Shown piece by piece: positions 2,309 to 20,879 of a stretch of 64,000 nt of DNA. The position numbers and the translations under genes were made by a program. The first letter of the stretch is position 1. Each line of letters begins with the position of its first letter. The notes under the pieces were generated by a model that did not search any database, was not told where the DNA came from, and saw only the letters and a program-made list of their open reading frames with translations. This stretch comes from a virus: positions 1 to 64,000 of the IMG/VR virus record IMGVR_UViG_3300020176_000010; one strand, given 5' to 3'.

Positions 2309-4053
2309 CTCCATTCAAACGCACAACGCAGGTAACAACGCTGCCGCCAACCATCGGGATCAAGGATCCAGAGGTTCGCGCGTTCCTTGACGCCATGGTG
2401 AACGCCTGGGACCTGCGTAGCGGCGTCACAAATGCGGATGACAGGGAGCGATTCGTCACCCTTGGGGAGATAAAGAAGCTGACGAACAAGGCTATTGTGC
2501 AGGCGTTTTCGCGCGGCTCCGGCGTGGCCGGTGGTGGCGGCGGCATTCCAAACCCTGGTGAAGACGATGTCTCCGGGATGATCGATGGGATGGTTGACTC
2601 CATTCGCCAAAGCATTCTGTACCAGCTGCTTGGCACATCAGTTGCACCAATCGATATCACAAACCTGAGGTCGAGAATCGATGCTGCCATCGGCGAGGTT
2701 GGTGCCACCATCCTGCGCGAACAAACGATTCGCTCGAGCGCGGATGAGGCTTTCGTATCACAGATCGAAGGCATCATTGCTCGCGTTGAAGAATCGGAGG
2801 CTGCAATCTTCGAAGAGCAGGAGATTCGCCTAACCAAGGACACCGCCCTCGCAAGAGCCATCAATACGATGTGGGCAGCCATTGGCGGAGATCAGGCAGT
2901 CATCCAGGACGGGCAGCTTGCAGCCGTGACGCCGTCCGCGGTGCAGGCCTCCAGATGGACGCAAGTCGTTGCATCCGTCACCGACCCAAACACGGGTCAG
3001 ATCAACTCCACGTCGATCAAGCAGGATCTCAACTCATACGCCAGCAAGGTGGATGGCAAGTTCAACTCCATCTACTCGGTTCGAGCCCAGGTGGATGTTG
3101 GCGGCCGAACCGTCGTTGGTGGCTTTGGGCTTTCCGCAACAGCTGGAGCTGGTAGCGCCGAAGGCCCGACCATCGATTTTGGCGTGCGAGCCGACAGGTT
3201 CTGGATTGCGGCCACATCTGGCTCTGGAGATGTGGCGTCGCAGATGAGTCCAGCGAAGAACGAAATGCCGTTCATCGTTGTGACCAGCACGCAAACCTAC
3301 AACGGAATCACCTATCAGCCCGGCGTCTACATGAAGTCGGCGTTCATTGTTGATGCATCGATCACCAACGCAAAGATTGGCAGCCTGATCTACTCCAACA
3401 ACTTCGATGGAGCAATAAGCCCCGACGGGAAACTGATCATCACCAACGGGACGCAGGGGTGGGCCATCGACAAGTCTGGCAACGCTGTGTTCAACAACCT
3501 CGTCGCGAGAGGCACGCTGCTGTCTGACAACTACAGCCCAGGCTTCAGTGGGTGGCGCATAGACAGGAGCGGATCGGCAGAGTTCAATGGCATTATCCTT
3601 TCCAGGCCGAACATCATCCGATCAGGCGTTTATGATGCAAGCGGAATCACTGTCAGCGCATATATCCAGGATGGCTTTGACGGCAGAGACAATCCTATCA
3701 GCAGGCCAATCACAAAAAGTGACGTCGTTGCATCCATCCTGATTGACACCGGCTACAACACGCTAACAGACGTCGGTTTGACGAATGGCCCTGGTTTTTG
3801 CGCTCGAGTGCTAGCTATTGCTGGTGGTTGGCACATGTGGTGGGCCGGTGGAACGCCGGCAAGCCCGACGTACAATGTGTACCCAGATGTTTCTGTCGGA
3901 TTCTACAATTCGTTCGGAATCAGTGGGGTGATATTCACCGGTGAGTACGGCCGCGTGTACATTCGACTCAATGTGGCGATCGATCTGTTGCAGCCCAACA
4001 TCACGCAGATTCGCCTTGGAAACTTTCGCTGGGAGCTGGCGCGACTGACATGA
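2305..4053 (+). CDS. Tail tip/fibre protein with DUF1983-like region
   Basis: 582 aa; GGFGL...FGVRADRFWIA...PFIV...GVYMKSAFIVDASITNAKIG motif; lower-GC variable C-terminus; ATGA overlap with upstream gene. Confidence 0.7.
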   Translation: MTPFKRTTQVTTLPPTIGIKDPEVRAFLDAMVNAWDLRSGVTNADDRERFVTLGEIKKLTNKAIVQAFSRGSGVAGGGGGIPNPGEDDVSGMIDGMVDSIRQSILYQLLGTSVAPIDITNLRSRIDAAIGEVGATILREQTIRSSADEAFVSQIEGIIARVEESEAAIFEEQEIRLTKDTALARAINTMWAAIGGDQAVIQDGQLAAVTPSAVQASRWTQVVASVTDPNTGQINSTSIKQDLNSYASKVDGKFNSIYSVRAQVDVGGRTVVGGFGLSATAGAGSAEGPTIDFGVRADRFWIAATSGSGDVASQMSPAKNEMPFIVVTSTQTYNGITYQPGVYMKSAFIVDASITNAKIGSLIYSNNFDGAISPDGKLIITNGTQGWAIDKSGNAVFNNLVARGTLLSDNYSPGFSGWRIDRSGSAEFNGIILSRPNIIRSGVYDASGITVSAYIQDGFDGRDNPISRPITKSDVVASILIDTGYNTLTDVGLTNGPGFCARVLAIAGGWHMWWAGGTPASPTYNVYPDVSVGFYNSFGISGVIFTGEYGRVYIRLNVAIDLLQPNITQIRLGNFRWELARLT

Positions 4054-7943: not shown

Positions 7944-10900
7944 ATGGCACAGCAAGACTTCTCCGACATCGCATCACTCATTCCCGATGCGCAGCCGAGC
8001 GCCGCAACGAAGCCCGCAGCACAACAGCAGGCATCCGAGTTTTCGGACATCTCCGCTCTGTTGCCAGATGCGGCCCCTGCGCAGTCCGGTGTTGATGGCT
8101 TCGTTGCCCAGTACCGACCACTTGCGGAGCGCGTTGCAAAGCAGGCCGGCGTGGCGCCCGAGGCGATTCTCGGCCAATGGGGTCTTGAGACTGGCTGGGG
8201 CAAGAGCGTAATCCCTGGCACAAACAACCTTGGGAACATCAAGGACTTCAGCGGCGGCGGCGTTCTGGCAACCGACAACATGACCGGCAGCCGAGATGCG
8301 TATCGCAAATACGGCTCTGCAGAGGACTTTGGAGATGATTTTGCAGGCCTGCTTGCTCGCCGCTACAAGTCCGCCATTGGGTCTGGCCAGAATGCGGAGC
8401 GCTACTTCACTGCGCTGAAGACGTCCGGCTATGCGGAGGATCCAGACTATGTGAAGAAGGGCGTCGCGGCGACACAGATGGCTGCCCGCGCCATGGGGTC
8501 AGCAGCGCCTGCGTCTTTACAGGCGAAGAGCGAGTACGGCTCCATCCAGCCGCAGCCCCCGCGGTCAACCTTCGATGCCATCAAGGACATGGGAAGCGCC
8601 TTGTGGCAAGGCGCCAAGTCGACCGCCAGATCTGTTGGCGCAACTGGCAGCGCATACATCGGCAATCTGTCGGATGTTGAGCTGGCAGCAGAGGCGCAGA
8701 AGTCGGATGTTGCGAACAATCCAGCGGCGCTTCAGTCGCTCCAGGGAGAGATCGCTCGCAGGAAGGCCGCAAACCCAAATGCAGGCATTCTAGATGCCGC
8801 CGCCGACGTCATTGGCGCCGCGCTGCAGAACAAAGAGGGCATGGCGCAGATGGTTGCAAACCAGGCGCCAAACTCTGCTGTGGCGCTCGGAGGAGCCTGG
8901 GCTGGCGGCAAGGCCGGCGCTGCCGTTGGATCTGCGTTTGGCCCAGCTGGCACGGTGGTTGGCGGCGTGCTCGGCGGGCTCGCCGGCATGTTCCTCGGCA
9001 ACGCGGCAATGGAGACCGGCGGCAAAGCCATTGAGAAGGCTGAAGGCGGGTTTACCCCACAGGAGCGAACAGAGGCCATCGAGGAGGGCGCCGTAAAGGC
9101 TGGCGTCATTACAGCCGTCGATGCCGCAACATTCAAGCTCGGCGGCGCCATTGCGAGCAGCCTGAACAAGGGGGCAATCCGCGCTGGCGCTCGAGCCGAG
9201 GCGAAGGTGCTTGCAGATGCTGGCATCAATATCGCTGACGGCGCAGAGATCGTTGCTGCGCTGGCAAAGAATCCAGCACTTCGCAAAACAGCCATCGAGG
9301 CAGGAGAGAAGGCTGCAAAGGCGGCAAGCTCCACGGCTTCAAGGATTGGCACGGCCGGCACGCTACTGACCACAGAAACGCTCGGCGAAGGTGTCGGCGA
9401 GTACGGCGGCGAGCTTGCCGCAACCGGTCAGGCTGACCCGTACGATGCAGCACTGGAGGCCATCTCCAGCTTCTCGCAAAGCGCACCGCAGGCCGCCATG
9501 TCCATGGTGCAGTCTGCAAGCAACAGGCTCGACACAAAGGCGATCGTTGCCGCGGCTCCAGAGATGGCACCAGTCATCGAGAAGGCCGCAACTCCAAACT
9601 CACCACTGTCGCGCGCCGCCATGGCTGCCAACACGCCAGAGGTGGTGGCGCAACGCCAGGCCGAGCGGTCCGCGCAAGCTGGCGCTTTGGGCGATGCGTC
9701 TGCAGCAGAAGCGGCTCCAGCGGCGGCGAAAGATGCTGGCGTTCGACTGGCAGAGCTCGAGGCTATCGCCAAGGGCACGCCGTCGCAACAGGTGACAGAC
9801 GAGTCCGGCAATCCGTTGACGATTCCAGGCGAGCCTGGCCGCTTCTTCACCCAGGAAGAAAAGGCGGAGTATGACCAGCTTGTGCAAATGCGCGACGCCA
9901 CCGAAAAGGTGCGCAACGCAGACAAGCCGCAGGTCGACGAGATCTCCACCCGCGTGGAAGAGATCTCTGCATCGATTCGCGAGAATGGCACACTGCAGGC
10001 CATGCGCGACGCAGGCGAGAACACCAACGCCCTGCTGAAAGACTTGGCCATCGCCAAGAGCAAGTCCACGGCCGCCGCGCAACGCGAGCAGGCCCTGGCG
10101 CGTGTCGAGTTTGCACTCGGCATGTCCGACCAGCTGATGCCAGCCCGCCAGCCGCGCGAGGCCGCAGACCCCATCCAGGCTCAGCTGAGCAACCCACAGA
10201 TTTCAGAGGTCGATCGCGAAGAGTTGAGCATCAACTACTTTGCGTCGAAGAATCAGGCCTTGCCAGAGAAGACGCGCCAGCGTGCACTCGAGCGCGCGCA
10301 GGAGATCGTTGGCCGCTATGCGGCGCCTTCGACGGGTCGCGCAGAGGGTGATCTATCGCCGGCCGTGCTTGCTGACATCGCTCCGCAGCCCGGCTCTCCA
10401 GAGGAGGCTCTGCGTCAGGCTGAGCGCTTCGACAGTGGCGCCTACCAGTTCAAGGCCGAAGGCTTCCCCGACGAGGCTGCAGAGCTCGAGCTGCAGGCTG
10501 ATGCTGCGCGCAAGGAGGCTGCAGTTCGCCGCGAAGCGATCGAGCTGGCAAACCGCGTTGAGCAGGTTCCAGCACCCGCCGTGGCCACGCCAGCCGGCCC
10601 GGGCCCTGCGGCGCTACGAAAGCGCAAGGCAACTCTGCGCCAGCTGGTCGACAATGGTCTCGGCCGCGTTGAGCGCCGCAACGATGGCTTCTTCCTGGTG
10701 AGCCAGAACGGACGCCAGGAGTTCAAGCTGGACGGCATGGCCGACGCGCAGCTGGCACGCACGGCGATCGCAGACTCCATCCGCGACGGCGCAGCCAAGG
10801 CCAACACCAACCCCACAGAAGGCCAAAAGCAGGCCGGCAACTACAAGGTCGGCGAGATCAAGTTCGATGGCCTGACGCTGGCCGTCGAGAACCCGCAGGG

Positions 10901-13900
10901 ATCCACCCGCAGCGGCGTCGACCCAAACGGCGAGCGCTGGGAAACCGTGATGCCAGCCAACTATGGCTACATCCGCGGATCTGCCATGGCGGCCGACGGC
11001 GACAAGGTGGACATCTACCTGCCGAACAACGCTCGCTCCGGTTCTCCAGCGTGGATCATCGACCAGTACAACGACGACGGCTCGTTCGACGAGACCAAGA
11101 CCGTGCTGGGCGTGCGCACCGCAGAAGAGGCGACGCGCATCTACGACGCAGGCTACTCGGATGGCTCTGGCCCGCGCCGCCGCGGCGCCGTGACCGAGAT
11201 GTCCATCGAAGACTTCAAGGCCTGGGCCAACTCCGCAGCCGCCAAGAAGCCAGCCGGCGCGCCGCGCGTGATGGATGAGCAGGCGGCGATCGCCGCCAGC
11301 GCCGCAGCCGACGGCCTGCGGGTCACCGGAACCATGCCCGTTCGCATCGATGGCGAGACCAGGAACATCGGCCTCGTGTCCGAGTTGCCTGATGCCGAGT
11401 CGATCGCGCGCGGCGGCCGCGCCACGCGCATCTCCAAGAAGCAGGGCGAGGTGCTGCAGGCAATCGCTCAGGCGTTTGGCAAGAGGGTTCAGTTCTTCTA
11501 CGAGCCAAAGAACGTCGGCGCCGGCGATGGGTTCATCATGAACAACGACCGGTCGACGATCTACCTGAACACCGTGTCAGGCCGCTCGCCGATCGTCGTG
11601 TTCGGCCACGAGCTGATGCACCAGCTCAAGCGCGACAACCCAGAAGCGCACGCAGCCATTGCGGCAGTCGTTGAGCGCCGCGTGAACCGCCAGGCCGCCG
11701 ACAACCTGTACGGCAAGGAGCTTGGCTACTCCGGCGACTCGGTGATGGAGGAGCTTATCTCCGACATCGGCGGTGACCTCATGTCTGACAAGACCTTCTG
11801 GTCCGACGTCATGGATGAGGTGCACGCGCAAAACGACACCAAGGCTGCGCGCAAGATCATCGTCAAGCTGGCTGATTTCCTGATGCGCTCGATCGAAGCG
11901 CTGTCGCGGAACCTGCGCAGCTACGCCGACACCGGCGCAGGCTCGAAGCTGGTCGACGACATGACCGAGATTCGAGCCGCCTTCCGAGGCGCCCTGGCTG
12001 ACTACATCAAGCAGCAAGGCATCAGCAAGCCAGCCATGCAGGCTGAGATCCTGAAGGCCGGACAGGATGCAAAACGGTCTGCCGGCCGCACCACAAAGAG
12101 CGACGTTCAGGGCGACATGTTCCAAGGCGACATGATTGGCCCGGACGAGAAGGTTGCAACAGGACGCGTCATTGACAGCAAGGGAGGCACCGAGGAAGGC
12201 GGGAATGTCGACAGCGCTGGGCGCCAGATTGCCCCAACACGCCAGGCTCTCGAGAACTTCTGGAAGTGGTTTGGCGATAGCGATGCGGTTGACGACAACG
12301 GCCGCCCATCCTTGTACCACCACACCACGCGCAACGACTTCGATAAGTTCGAGGCGAATCGCGTTACAAAGAACAGCGGCACATTCGACGAATGGGAGAC
12401 ATCACGCGCCGCGATCTTCTTCACGGAATCGCTGGAAGATAGCCAGGCCTACGGTAAGGCCGGAAAGGGCTTCGAGCCTGGCGCCAACGTCATGCCGGTG
12501 TACCTGAAGGCTGAGAACATTCTTGACATGACGAGCGGCTATCTGCCCAGCTACGGAAGAGATGCAGCCCGCATCGAAGAGGCCGGACTGAACCCGCGCT
12601 ACATGGATCGGTTCGACTGGTCCAAGTTCGACGACGAAGATGGCAAGGAGATGGTCGATGCACTCAAGCGCGCCGGCTATGACGCGGTCAAATTCTGGGA
12701 TCAGAATCCAGACACGCAAGAAGACTTCCAGGCGCTCGCCGTCTTCTCGCCGGAGCAGATCAAATCAGCTCTCGGCAACCGCGGAACATTTGACAGCGCG
12801 GATGCCAACATCACACGCAGCGCAAGCCGCGATGACGCCCTGACCGTCGAGGCCTACCACTTCAGCCGCCAGCCGCGCAACGTACTCAGCACCGGCGCGT
12901 ACGGCTCGGGCCTGCAGGGCAGCGACCGTGACGCCATCATGGACCACCCAGACAAGCGCCTGCGCAAGCGCCTCTACTTCTATGTGAACAAGGGTACTGG
13001 CGTGCGCCCAGAGTCTGGCGTTGGCGGCATTGCCCATAAGGCCATCCTGTCGAACATCTACGACAGCGACGCTGACGCAAAGCGCCTCAAGCAGGGCCGC
13101 GACAAGCGCGCCTTCGAGAGCGCCGTGCTGGATGCTGGCTATGACGGCTACCTGGCCCGCCTGGACGGCACCCAGCCCGGGCAGGTCATCCTGCTTGGTC
13201 AGAAGACCGTGGAGCCAGAGGTGCTGGGCCAGCGCACGCAGATCCCAGAAGCCAAGGCTGTGCCGCAGCCAGCGCAGCGGAGCATGGATGCTGGCGATCG
13301 GATCATGGCCAACAGCAGCCTGCCGGCTGGCCGCATGGACCTCGGCATGTGGTCTCGCGTGCTGCGCGGGATGATGCCTGACGTGCATGCGCAGCTGGAC
13401 GCGGCAGGCGTGTTTGATGGCGACGGCTCGTTCTACAAGGATGAGTTGGTTGCCCGTGCGCGCAAGTCGCAACCCATCGCCGCCCAGAGTAAGGGGCGCG
13501 AGGCCAAGATCGAGAAGCTGGCGCCCGTGGCGCAGCGCGGCCAGCGCGTGGTTGGCCAGCGCGTCACACTGTCTGCCGATGAGAAGCAGGCCATCGAGTT
13601 CTCCGCAGAAACGACCGGCGTCTCCGCCAAGGAAATCACGCGCGTCGTTCGAGAGCACAAGCTGGCGCATCCAACATCGCAAGGCTGGGCCCCGCTCAAT
13701 TTCGCCAAGACAAAGATCGAGAAGGGAAAGATCGCCTACGAATATGACAAGGTGCCATACAGCTTCAATGCTGACGCGGATGGCCGCGCGCTGAAGCCTG
13801 GCACTACGGAGTACGACCGCCGTGTTGGCGCCGTTGCGCGTCGCATGACCGACGAGGTGCGTCGTGTGCACCAGCGCGCAGCAGATGGCGACAAGAATGC

Positions 13901-16900
13901 AGAGAACATCCTGGCCCAGGCCGGGTGGTACAAGTCGATGCGCGCCCGCCTTCGCCATGAGTTCGGCGGCCTGGGCGACCTGTTCGCAGACCTGCTTGGC
14001 GCTACCAGCCCCAACACTCCAGTGCGCGACAACTGGACCAACGCCGTGGACTCTCTGCGCCGCGCCACGCGTGGCGACTTCGACCAGCTGATCCCTGCAT
14101 GGGAGGCGTGGGCGGATGACATCGATGCGCGCGAGACCGAGCTGCGAGCCTGGTTCAATGGCCAAATGGCAGACGGCAAGAGCAAGAAGGCCATCAAGGA
14201 ATCCGCTGAGTACAAGGAAAAGCTGGACAGCCTGATCGCTGCGCGCGAGCTGCCTGACGCCCTGCTGCCTACCAAGGAGACCGGCAAGAAGTACGGCTTC
14301 AACGGCCGCAATGTGGCGCGCGCCATGGTCGATCTGTGGCGTGTCGTGCGCGATGCGGACCCCGACGTCAAGCGCGGCGGCACGGCGCCAAAGGCAGTGA
14401 ACTTCAGCGGGAACCTGATCGGCTTCCGTGAGCGCGCAACCATCGACGTGTGGGCGGCCCGCATGCTGCAACGCCTGTCTGGCGGATTGCGCGTGCCGAG
14501 CATGGCTGAGGTCGGCGTGAGTGGCGAGATGCGCGCAGATGGCGCCACCACACTGCAGTTCGGGTTTGGCCAGGACGTCTTCTCGGATGCGGTGAAGCGC
14601 ATCCGCAAGGATCCAGAACTCAAGACCAACGACACGCTGGCCAAGATCAACGATGACGACCTGCAGGCTGTGGTCTGGTTCGTTGAGAAGGAGATCTGGA
14701 CAGCCAACAACTGGACCAGCGCAGCTGGCGAGGGCGGGTCGTTCGAGCTCGAGGCCAGCCTGTCTGGCTCCGCGGAACAGGAGCGCATCAAAGAGCTGCG
14801 CCGCATCATCGACTCCAGCAAGTCCAAGCCGGACGCAAAGGCCAAGGCCCGCGCGGAGCTGGCCAAGCTGGAGCGCACCGTGGACCGCTTTGTGGGCGGC
14901 CTGTCTACGCAGATGTCGATGGACACCCAGGGCATCGACTTTGTGCCACAGGACTCCGACATGGCTCGCCTGTCCAACGAGGTGACCACCGCGATCTACG
15001 AAGACGATAGCGCCACCGCCGTGCTGGCATCGAAGGCCCTGGCCACCGAGGGCCGGTACGGAGGCATCGAGCGCTCACTCGACCTCGAGGTTGTTGCGCG
15101 TGAAGGCTACAAGCCGGCGGCGCTGTGGAAGAAGATGCTCGAGATCGCCGATCGCGCCAAACAGGACAGCACGTTCCTGTCCCGCGTGCTGCGCGACGAC
15201 GAGGAGGTTGATATGCTGCGCCACCGCCCTGGCGTGGAGATCTATTTCCGTGAGGCCGCATCGCGCGAAAAGCTCGAGCGGGTGCTTGGAGAGTTGGCCA
15301 ACGAGGGGGTCGAGTTCCTGACTGTCATCGTTGATGGTCGCCGCATGTCTGACGCCGTCAAGGGCCAGATGCCACCGGCCGTCGGTGTGCGCATGCAGTA
15401 CGTTCCAGAGTTCGATCAGCGGTATGGTTTCGACGACCTTAGCTCCTTGGATGATGCTGCTCTTGCAGCTAAAATCCAGGACAAGGCCGCGGAAATGACC
15501 GCACTTGCAGACCGCGTCGCAAAGGCGGTCGGGAATGTCTCATTTGCCAGCCAGTTCTGGTACGAGACTGATGTGGCGTTTGGCCACGAATACCAGGAGA
15601 AAATTGATGCCATCACAACTGGAAGTGCTGAAGGATCAGCTGCGCAGGCTGGAGGCCGAGAATGGGCCGGACGGACCGCTCGCGCGGGGCTTGAAAGCGC
15701 GAATCGCCAAGCTCGAGAAACCGCACGCACCCAACCCGGTGGAGATGTACTCGATCGGAACCAGGCCGGCACCAATGACGCAGGACGGCCAGGCGCTACC
15801 GGAAGCGCCAACTCGGGATCAGTTCAAGACGCAGGCGGAGTTCGAAGAAGCGCTCGGCGGATGGCGCTCGATGGTGGGCAGGATCAGAGGATTGAAGGCC
15901 GGGAAGAAGACGGAAGCCTGACCGGCCTGCCGCGCGACTTCAACATCGCCGGCCAGCAGATCCGCGCAAGCCACTGGGCGCCCGCCGAGGCTGTCGCGCG
16001 CAAGTACATGGCTGATGCTGGGCTGGAGTACACACCACCAGCCCGCTACGCCAAGGTCGATCCAGAGCGCGCAAAGCGCATCGCGGCCGAGTACGACAAG
16101 CTCAAGCACGACCCACAAAATCCGCAGGTCAAGGCGGCCTATGAAGCCCTAGCCCGCGAGACGATCGCACAGTACAGCGCCGTCATCGATAGCGGCCTGC
16201 AGGTCGAGTTCATCGACTTCGCCAAGCAGGGTGACCCATACGCAGCAAGCCCGCGCCTCATGACGGAGGATGTGCGCAACAACAACCACATGTGGCTGTT
16301 CAGCACACGCGACGGGTTTGGCTCTGACGCCGAGTTTGACCCGATCGACAACCCGCTGCTCGCCGAGACGGAGTTCACCATCAGTGGCCAGAAGGCCTTG
16401 GTGAATGACTTGTTCCGCGTGGTGCACGACTACTTTGGCCACGTCAAGGAGGGCGTCGGCTTCCGCGCAGACGGCGAAGAGAACACCTGGCGCGCGCACA
16501 GCTCGATGTTCTCACCACTGGCGCAGCGCGCACTCACCACCGAGACGCGGGGGCAGAATTCCGCAGTGAACTTTTCCTCGAAACCTCTGTTCCAAGTGAT
16601 TGGTGAACACAGGGCGAGGATGCTTTATGACGAAGGATATGCGCGGAGGGTTGCGCGAGACGAAGCCGGTGACGTACGCCGGCGTGACGTACAGGACGTC
16701 AAGGGATTGTCCGGTGTATCCGGTCTGGAACGGGATGATGTATCGGTGCTTCAACCCCAAGGCTCCGAGCTTCAAGCACTACGGCGCCCGGGGAATAACG
16801 GTGGATCCACTGCTGCAGACTCTGCAGGGGTTCCTGGACGTGATGGGGCTTCCGCCGACACCGGCACACCAGATCGACAGGATCAACAACGACGGCAACT

Positions 16901-17303
16901 ACGAGCCGGGCAATCTGCGCTGGGCAACGCCAACGGAGAACCTTCGCAACAAGCGAACCTCTCGGATGTTGACGCACAACGGCAGGACGCAGGCGATGTC
17001 GGCATGGGCCGAGGAGCTAGGGCTGTCGACGCAGGCACTCAAGGCTCGGCTCGACAGGTACAACTGGACAGTCGATCAGGCACTCGAGACGCCTCTGGGG
17101 ACGGGCGGGAGCCGCTTTGGAAAACGATCACCGTAGGTGAGCACAACAGAACCGCCAGCTCCGGCGACACGCACTACGCCGACCAGAAGGTTGGCCTGCT
17201 GCCACAGTGGGTCAGCGAAGAAGGTCGTCGCGATTCAACGCCGGCCGAATACAATCAGCGCATCGAGGCGATGAAAGATCTGATCGCCTGCCTCCGCAAC
17301 TAA
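7944..17303 (+). CDS. Giant polyvalent virion protein 1 (glucosaminidase, InPase-like, HExxH metallopeptidase, ART-PolyVal, further unnamed domains)
   Basis: 3119 aa; GQWGLETGWG..NNLGNIK..GYAEDPDY (GH73-like, ~8090-8500); ENPQGSTRSGVD..YGYI..DGDKVDIY (~10800-11250); HELMH (11607-11621); FWKWFGDS..YHHT..EQIKSALGNRGTFD (~12250-12830). Confidence 0.85.
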   Translation: MAQQDFSDIASLIPDAQPSAATKPAAQQQASEFSDISALLPDAAPAQSGVDGFVAQYRPLAERVAKQAGVAPEAILGQWGLETGWGKSVIPGTNNLGNIKDFSGGGVLATDNMTGSRDAYRKYGSAEDFGDDFAGLLARRYKSAIGSGQNAERYFTALKTSGYAEDPDYVKKGVAATQMAARAMGSAAPASLQAKSEYGSIQPQPPRSTFDAIKDMGSALWQGAKSTARSVGATGSAYIGNLSDVELAAEAQKSDVANNPAALQSLQGEIARRKAANPNAGILDAAADVIGAALQNKEGMAQMVANQAPNSAVALGGAWAGGKAGAAVGSAFGPAGTVVGGVLGGLAGMFLGNAAMETGGKAIEKAEGGFTPQERTEAIEEGAVKAGVITAVDAATFKLGGAIASSLNKGAIRAGARAEAKVLADAGINIADGAEIVAALAKNPALRKTAIEAGEKAAKAASSTASRIGTAGTLLTTETLGEGVGEYGGELAATGQADPYDAALEAISSFSQSAPQAAMSMVQSASNRLDTKAIVAAAPEMAPVIEKAATPNSPLSRAAMAANTPEVVAQRQAERSAQAGALGDASAAEAAPAAAKDAGVRLAELEAIAKGTPSQQVTDESGNPLTIPGEPGRFFTQEEKAEYDQLVQMRDATEKVRNADKPQVDEISTRVEEISASIRENGTLQAMRDAGENTNALLKDLAIAKSKSTAAAQREQALARVEFALGMSDQLMPARQPREAADPIQAQLSNPQISEVDREELSINYFASKNQALPEKTRQRALERAQEIVGRYAAPSTGRAEGDLSPAVLADIAPQPGSPEEALRQAERFDSGAYQFKAEGFPDEAAELELQADAARKEAAVRREAIELANRVEQVPAPAVATPAGPGPAALRKRKATLRQLVDNGLGRVERRNDGFFLVSQNGRQEFKLDGMADAQLARTAIADSIRDGAAKANTNPTEGQKQAGNYKVGEIKFDGLTLAVENPQGSTRSGVDPNGERWETVMPANYGYIRGSAMAADGDKVDIYLPNNARSGSPAWIIDQYNDDGSFDETKTVLGVRTAEEATRIYDAGYSDGSGPRRRGAVTEMSIEDFKAWANSAAAKKPAGAPRVMDEQAAIAASAAADGLRVTGTMPVRIDGETRNIGLVSELPDAESIARGGRATRISKKQGEVLQAIAQAFGKRVQFFYEPKNVGAGDGFIMNNDRSTIYLNTVSGRSPIVVFGHELMHQLKRDNPEAHAAIAAVVERRVNRQAADNLYGKELGYSGDSVMEELISDIGGDLMSDKTFWSDVMDEVHAQNDTKAARKIIVKLADFLMRSIEALSRNLRSYADTGAGSKLVDDMTEIRAAFRGALADYIKQQGISKPAMQAEILKAGQDAKRSAGRTTKSDVQGDMFQGDMIGPDEKVATGRVIDSKGGTEEGGNVDSAGRQIAPTRQALENFWKWFGDSDAVDDNGRPSLYHHTTRNDFDKFEANRVTKNSGTFDEWETSRAAIFFTESLEDSQAYGKAGKGFEPGANVMPVYLKAENILDMTSGYLPSYGRDAARIEEAGLNPRYMDRFDWSKFDDEDGKEMVDALKRAGYDAVKFWDQNPDTQEDFQALAVFSPEQIKSALGNRGTFDSADANITRSASRDDALTVEAYHFSRQPRNVLSTGAYGSGLQGSDRDAIMDHPDKRLRKRLYFYVNKGTGVRPESGVGGIAHKAILSNIYDSDADAKRLKQGRDKRAFESAVLDAGYDGYLARLDGTQPGQVILLGQKTVEPEVLGQRTQIPEAKAVPQPAQRSMDAGDRIMANSSLPAGRMDLGMWSRVLRGMMPDVHAQLDAAGVFDGDGSFYKDELVARARKSQPIAAQSKGREAKIEKLAPVAQRGQRVVGQRVTLSADEKQAIEFSAETTGVSAKEITRVVREHKLAHPTSQGWAPLNFAKTKIEKGKIAYEYDKVPYSFNADADGRALKPGTTEYDRRVGAVARRMTDEVRRVHQRAADGDKNAENILAQAGWYKSMRARLRHEFGGLGDLFADLLGATSPNTPVRDNWTNAVDSLRRATRGDFDQLIPAWEAWADDIDARETELRAWFNGQMADGKSKKAIKESAEYKEKLDSLIAARELPDALLPTKETGKKYGFNGRNVARAMVDLWRVVRDADPDVKRGGTAPKAVNFSGNLIGFRERATIDVWAARMLQRLSGGLRVPSMAEVGVSGEMRADGATTLQFGFGQDVFSDAVKRIRKDPELKTNDTLAKINDDDLQAVVWFVEKEIWTANNWTSAAGEGGSFELEASLSGSAEQERIKELRRIIDSSKSKPDAKAKARAELAKLERTVDRFVGGLSTQMSMDTQGIDFVPQDSDMARLSNEVTTAIYEDDSATAVLASKALATEGRYGGIERSLDLEVVAREGYKPAALWKKMLEIADRAKQDSTFLSRVLRDDEEVDMLRHRPGVEIYFREAASREKLERVLGELANEGVEFLTVIVDGRRMSDAVKGQMPPAVGVRMQYVPEFDQRYGFDDLSSLDDAALAAKIQDKAAEMTALADRVAKAVGNVSFASQFWYETDVAFGHEYQEKIDAITTGSAEGSAAQAGGREWAGRTARAGLESANRQARETARTQPGGDVLDRNQAGTNDAGRPGATGSANSGSVQDAGGVRRSARRMALDGGQDQRIEGREEDGSLTGLPRDFNIAGQQIRASHWAPAEAVARKYMADAGLEYTPPARYAKVDPERAKRIAAEYDKLKHDPQNPQVKAAYEALARETIAQYSAVIDSGLQVEFIDFAKQGDPYAASPRLMTEDVRNNNHMWLFSTRDGFGSDAEFDPIDNPLLAETEFTISGQKALVNDLFRVVHDYFGHVKEGVGFRADGEENTWRAHSSMFSPLAQRALTTETRGQNSAVNFSSKPLFQVIGEHRARMLYDEGYARRVARDEAGDVRRRDVQDVKGLSGVSGLERDDVSVLQPQGSELQALRRPGNNGGSTAADSAGVPGRDGASADTGTPDRQDQQRRQLRAGQSALGNANGEPSQQANLSDVDAQRQDAGDVGMGRGARAVDAGTQGSARQVQLDSRSGTRDASGDGREPLWKTITVGEHNRTASSGDTHYADQKVGLLPQWVSEEGRRDSTPAEYNQRIEAMKDLIACLRN
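15447..15475 (+). promoter_or_regulatory. Sigma70-like promoter internal to giant gene
   Basis: TTGGAT-N17-TAAAAT about 130 nt upstream of nested ORF 15607. Confidence 0.55.
15607..15921 (+). CDS. Nested overprinted protein (+1 frame within giant gene), 104 aa
   Basis: AGGAGA RBS 6 nt before ATG; protein-like MPSQLEVLKDQLRRLEAENG...; host-frame translation over this span is low-complexity G/A/R-rich. Confidence 0.65.
   Translation: MPSQLEVLKDQLRRLEAENGPDGPLARGLKARIAKLEKPHAPNPVEMYSIGTRPAPMTQDGQALPEAPTRDQFKTQAEFEEALGGWRSMVGRIRGLKAGKKTEA
16627..17136 (+). CDS. HNH homing endonuclease overprinted in +1 frame within giant gene
   Basis: GAGGA RBS; W..MMYRC.NP....FKHYGARGITV...IDRINNDGNYEPGNLRWAT...N.RNKR motif. 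Confidence 0.85.
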   Translation: MTKDMRGGLRETKPVTYAGVTYRTSRDCPVYPVWNGMMYRCFNPKAPSFKHYGARGITVDPLLQTLQGFLDVMGLPPTPAHQIDRINNDGNYEPGNLRWATPTENLRNKRTSRMLTHNGRTQAMSAWAEELGLSTQALKARLDRYNWTVDQALETPLGTGGSRFGKRSP

Positions 17304-17315
17304 GGACCGAAGTAC

Positions 17316-20300
17316 ATGGCCCAGATTACGAACTGCCTGAAGCTCATCTCCCGCATGCCTGAGAGCGACCAGGACGCACTGGTTTCTCGACTTGACGAGC
17401 TGCAGGCTCTCGGCGTTCCTGCGCAGCGCGCACAGGTGCAGGCGGCCATCGACCTGATGTCGCGCCTGGAGCGCGAGGCAAACCCGCAGGGTATTCAACG
17501 CAGCGCAGCGCGCGACGTCACCGAGACGCCGGAGTTCCGCAGCTGGTTTGGCGATAGCAAGGTGGTGGATGCCGATGGCAAGCCGCTTGTCGTGTACCAC
17601 GCAACCACATCGAACATTAAAAAGTTCTCGACGAAGAAGTCAGCAGGCGGCTTCTACTTCACGCCAAACGCCGAAGATGCATACCCAAGCAAGCGCGGCG
17701 AAATGACGTCCGAGCGCGGTCTCAATGTGATGCCAGCCTACCTGGCCATCAACAGCCCACTGCGGACCAGCGACCCAGCCGATTGGCACAGGCTTGACGC
17801 AGACCGACGCTCCAGCATCGAGGATCGCGGATTTGACGGCGTCATTGTTGAAAACGAAGACGGGTCTGTGCGCGAGTACATCGCCTTCGAGCCCAGCCAG
17901 ATCAAGTCCGCCATCGGAAACCGGGGCACCTTCGACCCGGCCGACCCCGACATCACCCGCAGCGCATCCCGCCTGCCCGCCGGTGTTGAAATCATCGAGG
18001 TCGATGATGGCTTCGACGCCATGCAAGACGGCAAGCGCATCGGCCGCCTGCGCGACAACCTGCCACGCGGCGCCGCTGAGCGGCTGGACGAAAACGCCAG
18101 CGTCGACATCGTCAAGGTCGAGAACGAGTTCAAGGGCCAAGGTGTTGGCGCGGCCCTGTACGACGCCTTCTACGAGAAGCACGGCGGCCGCATCGCGCCA
18201 TCCGGCAAGACCTCGCCAGAGGCCTGGGCCCTGTGGAAGCGCAAGTTCCCTCAGAAGGTGCAGGAGTTCGTGCAGGCCGAAGCTCAGCGCATCCGCGACG
18301 GCGCAGACCCATTCATGGTCATGCGCAACATCACCGACAAGGACGTAGCGCGCGACGTGGCCATTGCGGCGGGCGACAACGTTATCCGCAGCGTGGCGCG
18401 GAATGTGGTCGATAGCGCCGAGTTCAAGCGCTGGTTCGGCGACAGTAAGGTGGCGGATGCCGAGGGTAAGCCGCTGGTGGTGTATCACGGCAGCCGATAC
18501 AACGCCGACATCAAGAGGTTCAGCGCAGCAAAGTCCGAGCAATCGGCGGCGGAGCGCGGAATCTACTTTACCGACAGCGCAGATCATGCAGATCAATACG
18601 CGAGCCAGTGGGGAGACGCCAGCCCAGAAGACGGCGGCTCAATTTACCCCGTCTATCTGAAGATTGAAAACCCCTACGTTTCCAATGCGTGGGAGTGGAA
18701 CATGGGCACAGACATCACGCCAGCCCAAGCTCGCAAACGAGGGCATGATGGCTACGTGATTCAAAACCACGAGGGCGGCACAACCTACATCGCCTTCCGC
18801 CCCGAGCAGATCAAGAGCGCCATCGGCAACCGCGGCACGTTCGACCCATCCGACACCGACATCACGCGCAGCGCCGCGCGCCCCGAATTCTTCAGCCAGC
18901 TGCAGCGCTCCATCGAACAAGTGCCAGACCGCCTGGCCACCATGTCTGCGCCACAGTGGAAGCTCTGGCTTGACGCCAATGCAGCCAAGCTGGGCGTAAA
19001 GAAGGACGAGATTGAGTGGTCAACAATCAAGGATTACTTGACACTTCGTGGCAAGGACAAGGTCACGCGCGACGAGTTGGCGGCATACCTGTCTGACAGC
19101 GGTGTGCGGGTGCGGGAGGTTGTTCTTGGTGGCGGCGGCACTGAAAAGGTAACCTTGGTTCGAGACTCAACCAGGCAGGACGCATGGGGAGAAGTCGTCG
19201 TCTATCGAAGCTCCGACGGGGCTTTCGTTGTCGAGAATGGAATTGGTGGGCAGAGCTGGTCGGTTCAGGATGCCGATTCATACGACAGCGACTACTCAGA
19301 AGACGATGGAAGCTACGCAGGAAGCTTCAGCTCACGCGAAGCTGTAGAGTCTTTCATCAATGGCCAGACGCAGGCCGCCGACCCATATTACTCCGGCGTT
19401 GGATCGAACCCAGCAACCAAGTATGGCGCCTATACCGTGCCCGGCGGCCCGCTCTCGCGCGATACTGAGATCCTGACCCGTGATGGCTGGATGCGGATGG
19501 ATGAGGTTCAGATCGGCGACGAGGTCATGACGCGACGAGATGAAGACGGCGGCCTGGAGTGGCAGCCAGTTGAAGCGCTGCCGACCGTTTACGCAGAAAA
19601 GCTATACCACTTCAAGAATCAATCGATCAACATGCGCGTCACGCCATGCCACAAGATGGTAGTCAAGCGTCGGCGCAGATCAACGGGCGAGATCGTTCGC
19701 GTCACGGCAGAGCAGCTTTGGGGCATGTCGGAGATGGTAGCCCCACTCACGGGGTCATGGGGCGGCGGTGAATTCTCTGACCTGTTTGATCAAGATCCTG
19801 GAGATGTCGCTGAGCTGCTTGGGTGGTTTATTGCAGAAGGCCACTACAAGACGGAGGCGGATGGCAAGAAGTCAACCATCGGTATTGCTCAGTGCCGATC
19901 AGCAAACAGCGACAAGTGCGCCCGTATCGAGTCCCTATTGGGGAGGATGGGTATCGCCTGGAATTACTCTGGCGGTCAGTATTGGCTGGGTGTCAAGAAG
20001 ATGTCTGCCGATCTGGTGCAGCTTCTGCATGCACAAGGGAAATCTGCTGAAAAGTATGTGCCTGGCTTCATGTTCAATGCGCCAGCCAGCGTCATTCAGC
20101 GCATGCTTGATGGCCTCTTGCTTGGCGATGGCTGCCTTGTAAAGCAGAATGGCCGAAAGCCTCGGTGGACATACCACACGAAATCCAAGCAGCTGGCAGA
20201 TGATGTCCAGGTGCTTGCTCTTCTCGTTGGTAAACGTGGATCCGTGTCTCGGCGCAAGACGGGTCTTTACACGGTCACCATCAATGATAAGCAGTGGGCG

Positions 20301-20879
20301 AGCATCGATGATGCGAAGCACGCGGTCGTCGATTACAACGACATCGCGTACTGCGTCACTGTGAAGAATCACTCGATCTACGTTCGTACCAATGGCGTCG
20401 CAGCGTTCACTGGAAACTCCAACTACCGCGAGGTGCTGATCACGTTGCCTCCGATTGGCCGGGTGAGATACACCGAGGAAAATGTCGTCGCCATCGATGA
20501 CGCGGACGACCCAAATCGTTCCCGCTACTTCTGGCGCTTCAAGGTTCCAGGCAATGAGCTACAGATCTCCAAGCAGGTTTACCGCACCCAGGAGGAGGCG
20601 AAGGCCTACATCCTGAGCGAGAAGCAGCCAGAGCCTCCGGCCGACAAGAACTACCGCTCCAGCCACTGGGATGCGCTGAATGTTATCGCGCATATCAGGG
20701 TGGATGATAGGGTGGACTCCGATGGAAAAAAAGTGCTCTTTGTGAATGAGCTGCAAAGTGATTTTGGCCAGGACTATCGCAAGGCAAAAGAAGCAATCGA
20801 GAGCGCTGTTGACACCGATTTTATGGGCATCGTCGAGCGCATGAAAAAAGCAGGCGTACTGGAGGTTGTTTGTGATTAA
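17316..20879 (+). CDS. Polyvalent virion protein 2 (ART-PolyVal, GNAT, ART-PolyVal, N-terminal part of an LPD-type domain; contains intein)
   Basis: 1187 aa; AAGGA RBS; two F..WFGDSKV.D..GKPLVVYH...QIKSAIGNRGTFD units; FKGQGVGAALY; YTVPGG/SNYREVLITLP...SSHW...ELQSD. Confidence 0.85.
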   Translation: MAQITNCLKLISRMPESDQDALVSRLDELQALGVPAQRAQVQAAIDLMSRLEREANPQGIQRSAARDVTETPEFRSWFGDSKVVDADGKPLVVYHATTSNIKKFSTKKSAGGFYFTPNAEDAYPSKRGEMTSERGLNVMPAYLAINSPLRTSDPADWHRLDADRRSSIEDRGFDGVIVENEDGSVREYIAFEPSQIKSAIGNRGTFDPADPDITRSASRLPAGVEIIEVDDGFDAMQDGKRIGRLRDNLPRGAAERLDENASVDIVKVENEFKGQGVGAALYDAFYEKHGGRIAPSGKTSPEAWALWKRKFPQKVQEFVQAEAQRIRDGADPFMVMRNITDKDVARDVAIAAGDNVIRSVARNVVDSAEFKRWFGDSKVADAEGKPLVVYHGSRYNADIKRFSAAKSEQSAAERGIYFTDSADHADQYASQWGDASPEDGGSIYPVYLKIENPYVSNAWEWNMGTDITPAQARKRGHDGYVIQNHEGGTTYIAFRPEQIKSAIGNRGTFDPSDTDITRSAARPEFFSQLQRSIEQVPDRLATMSAPQWKLWLDANAAKLGVKKDEIEWSTIKDYLTLRGKDKVTRDELAAYLSDSGVRVREVVLGGGGTEKVTLVRDSTRQDAWGEVVVYRSSDGAFVVENGIGGQSWSVQDADSYDSDYSEDDGSYAGSFSSREAVESFINGQTQAADPYYSGVGSNPATKYGAYTVPGGPLSRDTEILTRDGWMRMDEVQIGDEVMTRRDEDGGLEWQPVEALPTVYAEKLYHFKNQSINMRVTPCHKMVVKRRRRSTGEIVRVTAEQLWGMSEMVAPLTGSWGGGEFSDLFDQDPGDVAELLGWFIAEGHYKTEADGKKSTIGIAQCRSANSDKCARIESLLGRMGIAWNYSGGQYWLGVKKMSADLVQLLHAQGKSAEKYVPGFMFNAPASVIQRMLDGLLLGDGCLVKQNGRKPRWTYHTKSKQLADDVQVLALLVGKRGSVSRRKTGLYTVTINDKQWASIDDAKHAVVDYNDIAYCVTVKNHSIYVRTNGVAAFTGNSNYREVLITLPPIGRVRYTEENVVAIDDADDPNRSRYFWRFKVPGNELQISKQVYRTQEEAKAYILSEKQPEPPADKNYRSSHWDALNVIAHIRVDDRVDSDGKKVLFVNELQSDFGQDYRKAKEAIESAVDTDFMGIVERMKKAGVLEVVCD
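19449..20417 (+). mobile_element. Intein (class 3-like, Pro1) with LAGLIDADG endonuclease, 323 aa
   Basis: Block A PLSRDTEILTRDGW; block B VTPCHKM; LLGWFIAEG and MLDGLLLGDG; block F AYCVTV; ends FTGN|S; removal restores YTVPGGSNYRE. Confidence 0.85.

Follow-up and report, generated by a model that had tools for sequence, protein, structure and literature searches.

An HNH-like gene embedded out of frame in the gene for a giant phage polyvalent protein whose reading frame stays open

Introduction

The earlier view, to our knowledge, was that a homing endonuclease gene spares its host gene only by residing in an intron, in an intein or between genes. Group I introns and inteins carry endonucleases of the HNH or LAGLIDADG type (the I-HmuI introns are one example). 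In Aeromonas phage Aeh1 the free-standing homing endonuclease gene mobE reportedly splits nrdA, and the T4 gene 60/39 split is said to involve mobA and a bypass of 50 nucleotides (nt). Here we describe an HNH-like gene that lies out of frame, with neither an intron nor an intein signature, inside the gene for a giant polyvalent virion protein of a phage. The locus belongs to IMG/VR virus record IMGVR_UViG_3300020176_000010, an 81,140-bp record that is 99% complete, and the window that we analysed is the whole of its first 64 kb (positions 1 to 64,000).

The closest described systems are those of Arsenault, Gosselin and Gogarten (Genes 2025; PMC11855218), who reported hidden, out-of-frame HNH insertions in methylase genes of mycobacteriophages (ShiLan gp65 and Pacc40 gp60) and thereby a fourth lifestyle for such genes, out of frame and unspliced. 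According to the main text of that paper, the two insertions have no stops in the host frame and no intron or intein signals, they are predicted to form a protruding loop, and their distribution is disjunct (PMC11855218). The start of the ShiLan insert resembles downstream host sequence, and for translation of the hidden open reading frames (ORFs) the main text reports that no ribosome-binding site was found and proposes leaderless GTG starts (PMC11855218). The words DarB, Ralstonia and polyvalent each occur 0 times in the text of the paper, whose supplements and repository survey may list further hosts. A literature search returned no paper that joins out-of-frame HNH genes with polyvalent proteins.

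The locus in the window shows all five of the traits that characterize the ShiLan and Pacc40 type, namely an insertion, an open host frame, an HNH-like ORF in an alternative frame, no splicing signature and a disjunct distribution. As in the two methylase genes described in that text, the insert falls in a conserved part of the coding sequence (CDS), is sporadically distributed and begins with sequence resembling the adjacent host sequence. However, the host gene here encodes a polyvalent virion protein of a phage of ~60% GC from salt-marsh and soil metagenomes rather than a mycobacteriophage methylase, and the embedded ORF has a clear Shine-Dalgarno (SD) sequence and an ATG. The frame relation is also different: the Pacc40 host (locus L151, 338-817) reads the +1 frame of its HNH gene, whereas the host in the window reads the +2 frame, and the Pacc40 frame equivalent to the latter contains stops. 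Either alternative frame can therefore stay open.

The older systems are instructive as well. Like the mobE and mobA cases, the locus in the window is an endonuclease gene with neither intron nor intein in an essential or conserved gene, to which the host adapts; unlike those cases, in which the outcome is two polypeptides or a ribosomal hop, the host frame is kept open and would be read through. It resembles the introns and inteins that carry endonucleases in being a selfish gene at a conserved site, with a sporadic distribution and apparent co-conversion, but it has no detectable ribozyme core or Hint domain and the insert would stay in the product. We regard it as a well-supported new example of the layout published in 2025, and not as a new principle.

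Results

A 561-nt insertion at a conserved turn of the host protein

A stretch of 561 nt has been inserted into the host CDS, where it takes the place of a native Gly-Pro-x (GPx) turn in the conserved C-terminal domain of the host protein. We consider it likely that this is an unspliced HNH-like homing element within a polyvalent protein gene, and that it is read through as a loop of 187 amino acids (aa). The features of the locus are as follows, with the basis for each in parentheses; 'empty' denotes host alleles that lack the insert and 'filled' those that have it.

7944-17303, plus strand: host gene, polyvalent virion protein of 3119 aa (ORF list, translation)
15861-16574 (start approximate), plus strand: N-terminal part of an unnamed domain, cut by the insert (60 related viral loci, alignment A1)
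16563-16574, plus strand: apparently co-converted upstream host codons A-V-N-F, where the closest empties have W-V-N-Y (comparison with empty alleles)
16575-17135, plus strand: insert, 561 nt or 187 host-frame codons, 0 stops (comparison with empty alleles)
16584-16610, plus strand: 5' border peptide PLFQVIGEH in the host frame, one copy of a diverged direct repeat (conserved in four other filled alleles)
16616-16620, plus strand: SD sequence GAGGA, six nt 5' of the HNH ATG (sequence)
16627-17136, plus strand: HNH-like ORF, 169 aa plus TAG, +1 frame relative to the host (PHROG HNH families, alignment A2, GC content at third codon positions or GC3)
17112-17144, plus strand: 3' border peptide PLWKTITV plus native GEH in the host frame, second repeat copy (overlaps the HNH C-terminus and stop)
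17136-17168, plus strand: apparently co-converted downstream tract in the host tail (comparison with 97%-identical empty hosts)
17136-17303, plus strand: host C-terminal tail, the rest of the domain (GEHNRTASSGDTHYADQKVGLLPQW...; downstream invariant residues)

The first-pass annotation, made from the letters of the window, had described a complete HNH gene with its own ribosome-binding site in the +1 frame, an open host frame of low complexity, an interrupted ETRGQNS motif, loosely duplicated borders, and no intein blocks or intron core. These descriptions hold up. The gene and its GAGGA are present at the positions given, the host frame reads across the insert as 187 residues rich in G/R/A/D/Q/S (64% of them disorder-promoting), homologues continue through the interrupted motif, both borders recur in the four other filled alleles, and the searches for intron and intein families described below came back empty.

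The insertion is recognized from the empty alleles. Homologues read ETRGQNSW(V/L)N(F/Y)GPxGxxNRTA..DT.(Y/F)ADQK.GLLP.W free of gaps, and gp16 of Octadecabacter virus BD1 likewise reads …TTETRGQNSWVNFGPYGDANR…ADQKVGLLP with no gap. Among 60 viral-contig loci with the domain, 55 have an ETRGQNS-type motif and L132-134 have EARGQNSW, and all 58 of these are insert-free; L143 ends before the site and L144 is displayed short of it. The domain match of L143 and L144 is ~300 nt longer and includes an extra segment, in frame and upstream of this site within the domain, that is apparently a different insertion. Giant homologues give the same picture: of the best 119 among 1223 (E<=1e-10) from a collection of 5.8 billion proteins, 117 are empty, the motif being absent from the remaining 2-3, and the residue that follows ETRGQNS is W in 116 of the empties and Y in 1.

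Particularly informative are P0015-17, which are empty, 97% identical to the window in the domain, and read …NSWVNYGPHGETNRKAGAAETHYADQK… at the site (the site sequence is …NSWVNYGPHGETNR… in a P0015-type host). At this site the window has …NSAVNF[187 aa]GEHNRTASSGDTHYADQK…; it agrees with these proteins beyond that, with GEHNRTASSGD where the 97%-identical empty hosts have GETNRKAGAAE. This comparison shows that the insert replaces the GPx turn and brings along host codons of a foreign type, ~4 upstream and ~11 downstream.

Four other alleles are filled at the same codon. Together with the window, L006 and L150 are available at the DNA level, and P0003 (1928 aa) and P0004 (1034 aa) as proteins, which came up when the host-frame translation of the insert was compared with 1.84 billion representative sequences. 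The viral contig L006 matches the window at 130/169 positions of the HNH product and at 116/187 of the host-frame insert, which is also exactly 187 codons long, in a host whose 240 aa upstream are only 47.5% identical. The metagenome contig L150 matches at 101/164 and 75/181 positions, respectively. A degenerate DNA pattern for WKTITVGEHN recovered only the L006 contig among viral contigs and one metagenome contig (L150). The border peptides …PL(F/H/Y)xV(I/L/V)GE… and …WKTITVGEHNR are common to all five filled alleles, the second (WKTITVGEHNR) being identical throughout, and all five also retain the downstream invariant residues N429, Q442 and K443 of the host domain. In L006, P0003 and P0004, hundreds more host residues follow 3' of the insert.

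The host-frame reading of the insert also matches residues 381-477 of P0009, an 881-aa PolA-like protein, and residues 1512-1631 of P0012, a 4258-aa polyvalent protein in which the segment follows the InPase domain. Judged by sequence similarity, these segments are likely to be further overprinted copies of the ORF family in other host genes.

The embedded ORF and its relatives

The inner ORF is a real gene in this stretch. The HNH frame is open from stop to stop over 16600-17136, with its ATG at 16627 and its TAG at 17134-17136, and the ORF accounts for 510 of the 561 nt of the insert. The 51 nt outside the ORF lie at its 5' side (52 nt of insert precede the ATG) and none are found 3' of the HNH stop. 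Within 16627-17136, GC3 peaks (0.79) in the HNH frame; the host frame has GC1=0.79 and GC3=0.51 there, versus a GC3 of 0.76 in the rest of the giant gene. A scan of 16300-17400 gave no sigma-70-like promoter for the ORF, and two terminator-like hairpins there are on the minus strand and at chance level. We also considered a +1 frameshift that would fuse the giant protein to the HNH product, and set it aside: a TGA at 16597-99 ends the HNH frame upstream of its start, with only 27 nt between this stop and the ATG, and a slippery site is not evident.

The ORF product has matches in four PHROG families, all with HNH or restriction endonuclease as their annotation, at E values from 1e-40 to 1e-27 (phrog_3377, E=1.4e-40, and phrog_374, E=1.9e-34, among the PHROG matches), and relatives are present in 1051 phage records. 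It bears a DRINNDGNYEPGNLRWAT..EN..N core, in full H-Q-I-D-R-I-N-N-D-G-N-Y-E-P-G-N-L-R-W-A-T-P-T-E-N-L-R-N, and a C-terminal part resembling a helix-turn-helix (HTH), and its residues N96 and N108 are invariant among 20 relatives (alignment A2). With the hidden ORF in gp60 of Mycobacterium phage Pacc40 it shares 53% identity over 76 aa (pairwise E=1e-25), and a DNA-level search with the ORF also matched Pacc40 gp60. We infer that the embedded ORF encodes an HNH-like homing endonuclease, which would cleave the empty allele.

Homologous ORFs of 184 aa are also found, again in the +1 frame, inside a CDS annotated as 'DarB-like antirestriction' in the Ralstonia phages GP4 (NC_054964, L004) and Gamede (NC_054958, L003). 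There the ORF occupies 2941-3495, is ~44-46% identical to that of the window, has AAGGAG before its ATG, and leaves 0 stops in the host frame. The site differs from that in the window: it is a boundary between modules in the region of the protein's first quarter, at which Gervaise and RPZH6 carry a ParB-like module and Gerry a shorter form; no clean empty site was found for this insert, the region being a mosaic of modules. The RefSeq records of both phages annotate only the giant CDS and not the embedded ORF. Ralstonia phage RPZH6 (MT361768) has its DarB-like gene recorded as two CDS that overlap, with a change of frame at that place (L146, ~1578-1599), which points to a frameshift or sequencing error unrelated to the HNH element.

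An SD sequence and an ATG are found in all five cases that can be read at the DNA level (window, L006, L150, Gamede and GP4), with SD-like purine runs 5' of the ATG in the four other than the window.

The host frame is kept free of stops

The host frame starts on the third positions of HNH codons, and a host-frame stop needs a T-ending HNH codon before a codon that begins with AA, AG or GA. Across the insert there are 0 stops in 187 codons versus 3.3-5.8 expected. The probability of finding none in the window is 0.0013 with the codon usage of two neighbouring genes, 0.0097 with the usage of the giant gene plus pseudocounts, and 0.013-0.016 when the synonymous codons of the ORF itself are permuted. 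T-ending codons precede AA-, AG- or GA-starting codons in 0/38 cases versus 16/130 for other codons (Fisher p=0.013).

The related inserts behave alike. By permutation and by reference usage, respectively, the probability of no stops is 0.019 and 0.0077 for L006, 0.012 and 0.0027 for L150, 0.0047 and 0.0058 for Gamede, and 0.019 and 0.0019 for GP4. When the window, L006, Gamede and GP4 are pooled, T stands before risky codons 0/168 times versus 61/543 for others (p=3e-8), a value that overstates independence because the window and L006, and GP4 and Gamede, are related pairs. Free-standing members of the family serve as a control. In the equivalent frame, 79 of 80 relatives from viral contigs contain 1-27 stops and the sole stop-free one is the embedded L006; even the 17 free-standing loci with a GC content of at least 0.58 have 1-13. 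All six of the other embedded inserts (L006, L150, P0003, P0004, Gamede and GP4) have 0 host-frame stops.

The first-pass annotation had cautioned that this frame of a GC3-rich gene is naturally stop-poor. The bias is real, but it is an insufficient explanation, given probabilities of ~0.001-0.02 per lineage, and the data support selection that keeps the frame stop-free. The same annotation had proposed a homing element tolerated as an unspliced loop of ~185 aa, and the comparative data support this proposal, 'disordered' and 'homing' being its more conditional parts.

The two frames divide the insert between them

Comparison of the window with L006 reveals which frame is constrained where. 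In the HNH body (16627-17090), 33 of 94 differences are HNH-synonymous and only 7 are host-synonymous, and half fall on HNH third positions. In the 52 nt 5' of the ATG (16575-16626), 7 of the 13 differences are host-synonymous and 8 are on host third positions. The three differences in the final 25 nt of the insert are all synonymous in the host frame and nonsynonymous in that of the HNH gene, and through one of them L006 lacks the HNH stop. Conservation of the interior in the host frame is low (41-62% identity in L150 and L006). The interior is constrained as a nuclease and by the exclusion of host stops, and the borders and tail are constrained as host protein; this split is predicted by read-through and not by removal of the insert.

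The borders themselves are of interest. The starting peptide has the consensus (S/G)x(K/Q/R)PL(F/H/Y)xV(I/L/V)GE, the closing one P(L/R)WKTITVGEH, and the two are mutually similar. A tentative and at present rather doubtful idea, read from these peptides, is that they act as a host-frame adaptor, pairing as a beta-ribbon stalk that would keep both ends of the insert close to each other and re-create the native turn. If this idea were true, a nuclease gene could sit inside a folded domain without RNA or protein splicing, and introns and inteins would be joined by a third solution, one that is purely structural. It would also account for the similar border resemblance reported for ShiLan.

Evidence for recent movement

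The distribution of the insert is sporadic: it is lacking from hosts that are 97% identical in the domain and present in hosts that are 47% identical. A soil-metagenome run (X2) provides a closer view. One contig that covers 16000-16920 shows 28 listed differences over the 575 nt that lead up to the insert and one listed difference (at most three) inside it. A second contig from the same run (16894-17333) departs from the window just at 17246 and 17300; the 19 differences of a third, all within 17305-17537, bring the downstream total to 21 in 402 nt. Divergence is ~5% in the flanks and <=0.5% in the insert (Fisher p<=2e-7), and if the insert diverged at half the flank rate, the probability of three or fewer differences would be 4e-4. 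These contigs are metagenome assemblies in which chimerism is possible, and the key contrast lies within single contigs. The tract shared with the X2 strain extends roughly from 16542 to 17245.

These patterns point to horizontal and recent movement of the insert. Co-converted flanks, together with a nearly identical insert in diverged flanks, would be signatures of an element that is currently mobile.

On the reading that we favour, the events would be as follows. An HNH-like homing endonuclease gene of the free-standing type would have invaded the CDS, entering the C-terminal domain at its conserved NF-GPx-GExNR turn. The host mRNA would be translated straight across the 561 nt, yielding the complete protein with an excursion of 187 residues that is of low complexity and probably floppy, and the nuclease would be made separately, in the +1 frame, by internal initiation at its own SD and ATG. 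Selection at the level of the phage would purge host-frame stops, such that HNH codons never end in T before AA, AG or GA codons, since a host-frame stop would remove the end of a conserved domain and, in relatives, downstream domains as well, from a protein that presumably must remain whole. The element would spread by cleaving empty alleles, with repair copying it and short flanks. We infer that read-through occurs at the protein level, that the loop is disordered and that the host domain retains its function.

Alternative explanations

Several observations weigh against the read-through of a mobile nuclease gene, and each is taken here with the alternative that it favours. It is unlikely, in our judgement, that the insertion simply crippled a dispensable C-terminal domain, with the frame left open by composition or luck, or to avoid polarity onto the gene at 17316. 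Three host residues that are nearly invariant in empties (the Trp of NSW and the Gly-Pro of GPx) are lost in filled alleles, where the Trp has become A or V in 5/5 cases, and the host domain of these alleles may be impaired rather than intact. The downstream invariant residues and motif are nonetheless retained in every filled allele, the changes at the 3' border are host-synonymous, and L006, P0003 and P0004 continue for hundreds of further host residues after the insert. A frame of a GC3-rich gene is stop-poor, with 3-6 stops expected and not dozens, and stop avoidance has P values of 0.001-0.02 per lineage in lineages that are partly related; against this, five diverged alleles (three at the DNA level) and two Ralstonia phages have 0 stops, and 79/79 free-standing relatives have them. 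Filled alleles are rare (0/119 of the other giant homologues), the next gene begins 13 nt past the host stop, and the openness of the frame could be selected for translational continuity or polarity and not for the peptide.

Removal of the insert, by a degenerate intron, by ribosomal bypass or by atypical protein splicing, would give a mature protein without the loop, and we consider this improbable. The idea draws on the border direct repeat, which is kept in 5/5 filled alleles and includes GGT-GAR-CAC (G-E-H) copies at 16602-10 and 17136-44. In T4 gene 60, ribosomes bypass 50 nt between matched take-off and landing codons, which the repeat recalls; here, however, the putative take-off codon is not followed by a stop and ~530 nt would have to be crossed. 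The loss of near-invariant turn residues would be less costly if the insert were removed, and section 3.1 of the 2025 paper describes the start of the ShiLan insert as resembling the downstream exon (PMC11855218). Yet removal would make host-frame stops harmless, and stops are avoided in every lineage. An Rfam scan of 16000-17700 with E up to 10 gave no intron match, a P1-P9 group I core is not seen, and the ORF leaves just 51 nt of the insert over. A Pfam search of the host frame gave no Hint or intein family, and the terminal residues do not fit an intein: the last residues of the insert are ...TITV instead of HN, and Gly rather than C/S/T stands at the +1 extein position. In a metatranscriptomic library (X6), one contig spans the 3' junction without interruption, reaching from the insert into the host tail (16898-17268), and no spliced or empty-allele joint was found in 4 sequencing runs, where RNA cover consists of two short contigs and the result applies to the covered parts. 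We give this continuity across the 3' junction little weight, as the X6 contig is possibly contaminating DNA and contigs hide rare spliced forms.

The third set of observations concerns the nuclease itself. We use the label 'HNH' because of the PHROG names and the motif, Pfam and NCBIfam having given no HNH match for the ORF. HNH_3 touches just 1/20 aligned relatives (E=0.02), a PDB sequence search with the ORF family gave no match, and in alignment A2 the motif's opening His gives way to Tyr in L006 and is missing from several relatives. The authors of the 2025 report, in section 3.6, are equally cautious about the HNH name for the Pacc40 ORF (PMC11855218). It is nevertheless very improbable that the ORF is a domesticated DNA-binding or regulatory protein, or an overprinted peptide with a new function in the polyvalent protein, as the weak nuclease assignment, the unconserved His and the HTH-like C-terminal matches in several family members might suggest, when 97%-identical hosts are empty and 47%-identical hosts are filled at the same site, when there are apparent co-conversion tracts and a near-identical insert within 5%-diverged flanks, and when the host-frame interior is poorly conserved (41-62% identity, 7/94 differences host-synonymous).

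The host gene and its neighbour

The host ORF runs without a break along its full length, the insert included. Its product comprises an N-terminal glucosaminidase/SLT lysozyme part, a glycine zipper, InPase, ART-PolyVal and the unnamed conserved C-terminal domain, with Pfam matches to PF01832, to InPase (PF18823, E=3e-40) and to ART-PolyVal (PF18760, E=9e-20). InPase, ART-PolyVal and lytic domains in one giant phage protein are the hallmark of polyvalent proteins, and homologues have the same sets; the product is a typical phage polyvalent virion protein.

The unnamed domain consists of the last ~290 native residues and has the motifs NDxFRxVHDYFGH, GEEN and ETRGQNS. In alignment A1 the residues H189, D190, H194, E206, H213 and E228 are invariant, along with the three downstream residues named above. 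The domain falls in phrog_3170 of PHROGs, where its function is unnamed. Pfam gave no credible match for the window segment or for 42 aligned members, NCBIfam gave none for the domain, and the best hit in a PDB profile search (E=0.014) is at chance level.

The next gene (17316-20879, plus strand) starts 13 nt past the host stop and encodes a second polyvalent protein of 1187 aa with two ART-PolyVal stretches. Its product matches Hint_2 (E=0.004, aa 714-784) and LAGLIDADG_3 (E=1.5e-9, aa 928-992), and the gene probably carries a LAGLIDADG intein. If so, two different selfish elements reside in adjacent polyvalent genes.

Discussion

The locus described here extends the out-of-frame, unspliced lifestyle to the giant polyvalent virion proteins of phages of Gram-negative bacteria. 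To the published cases it adds a quantified avoidance of stops with a free-standing control, a constraint partitioned between the two frames, apparent co-conversion and what seems to be a recent transfer. The ordinary SD and ATG bear on the question, raised by the 2025 paper, of how hidden ORFs are translated.

It is important to note that gene callers miss such ORFs, as they did in the records of GP4 and Gamede. For this reason, some of the low-complexity 'linkers' in giant phage proteins may in fact be overprinted selfish genes.

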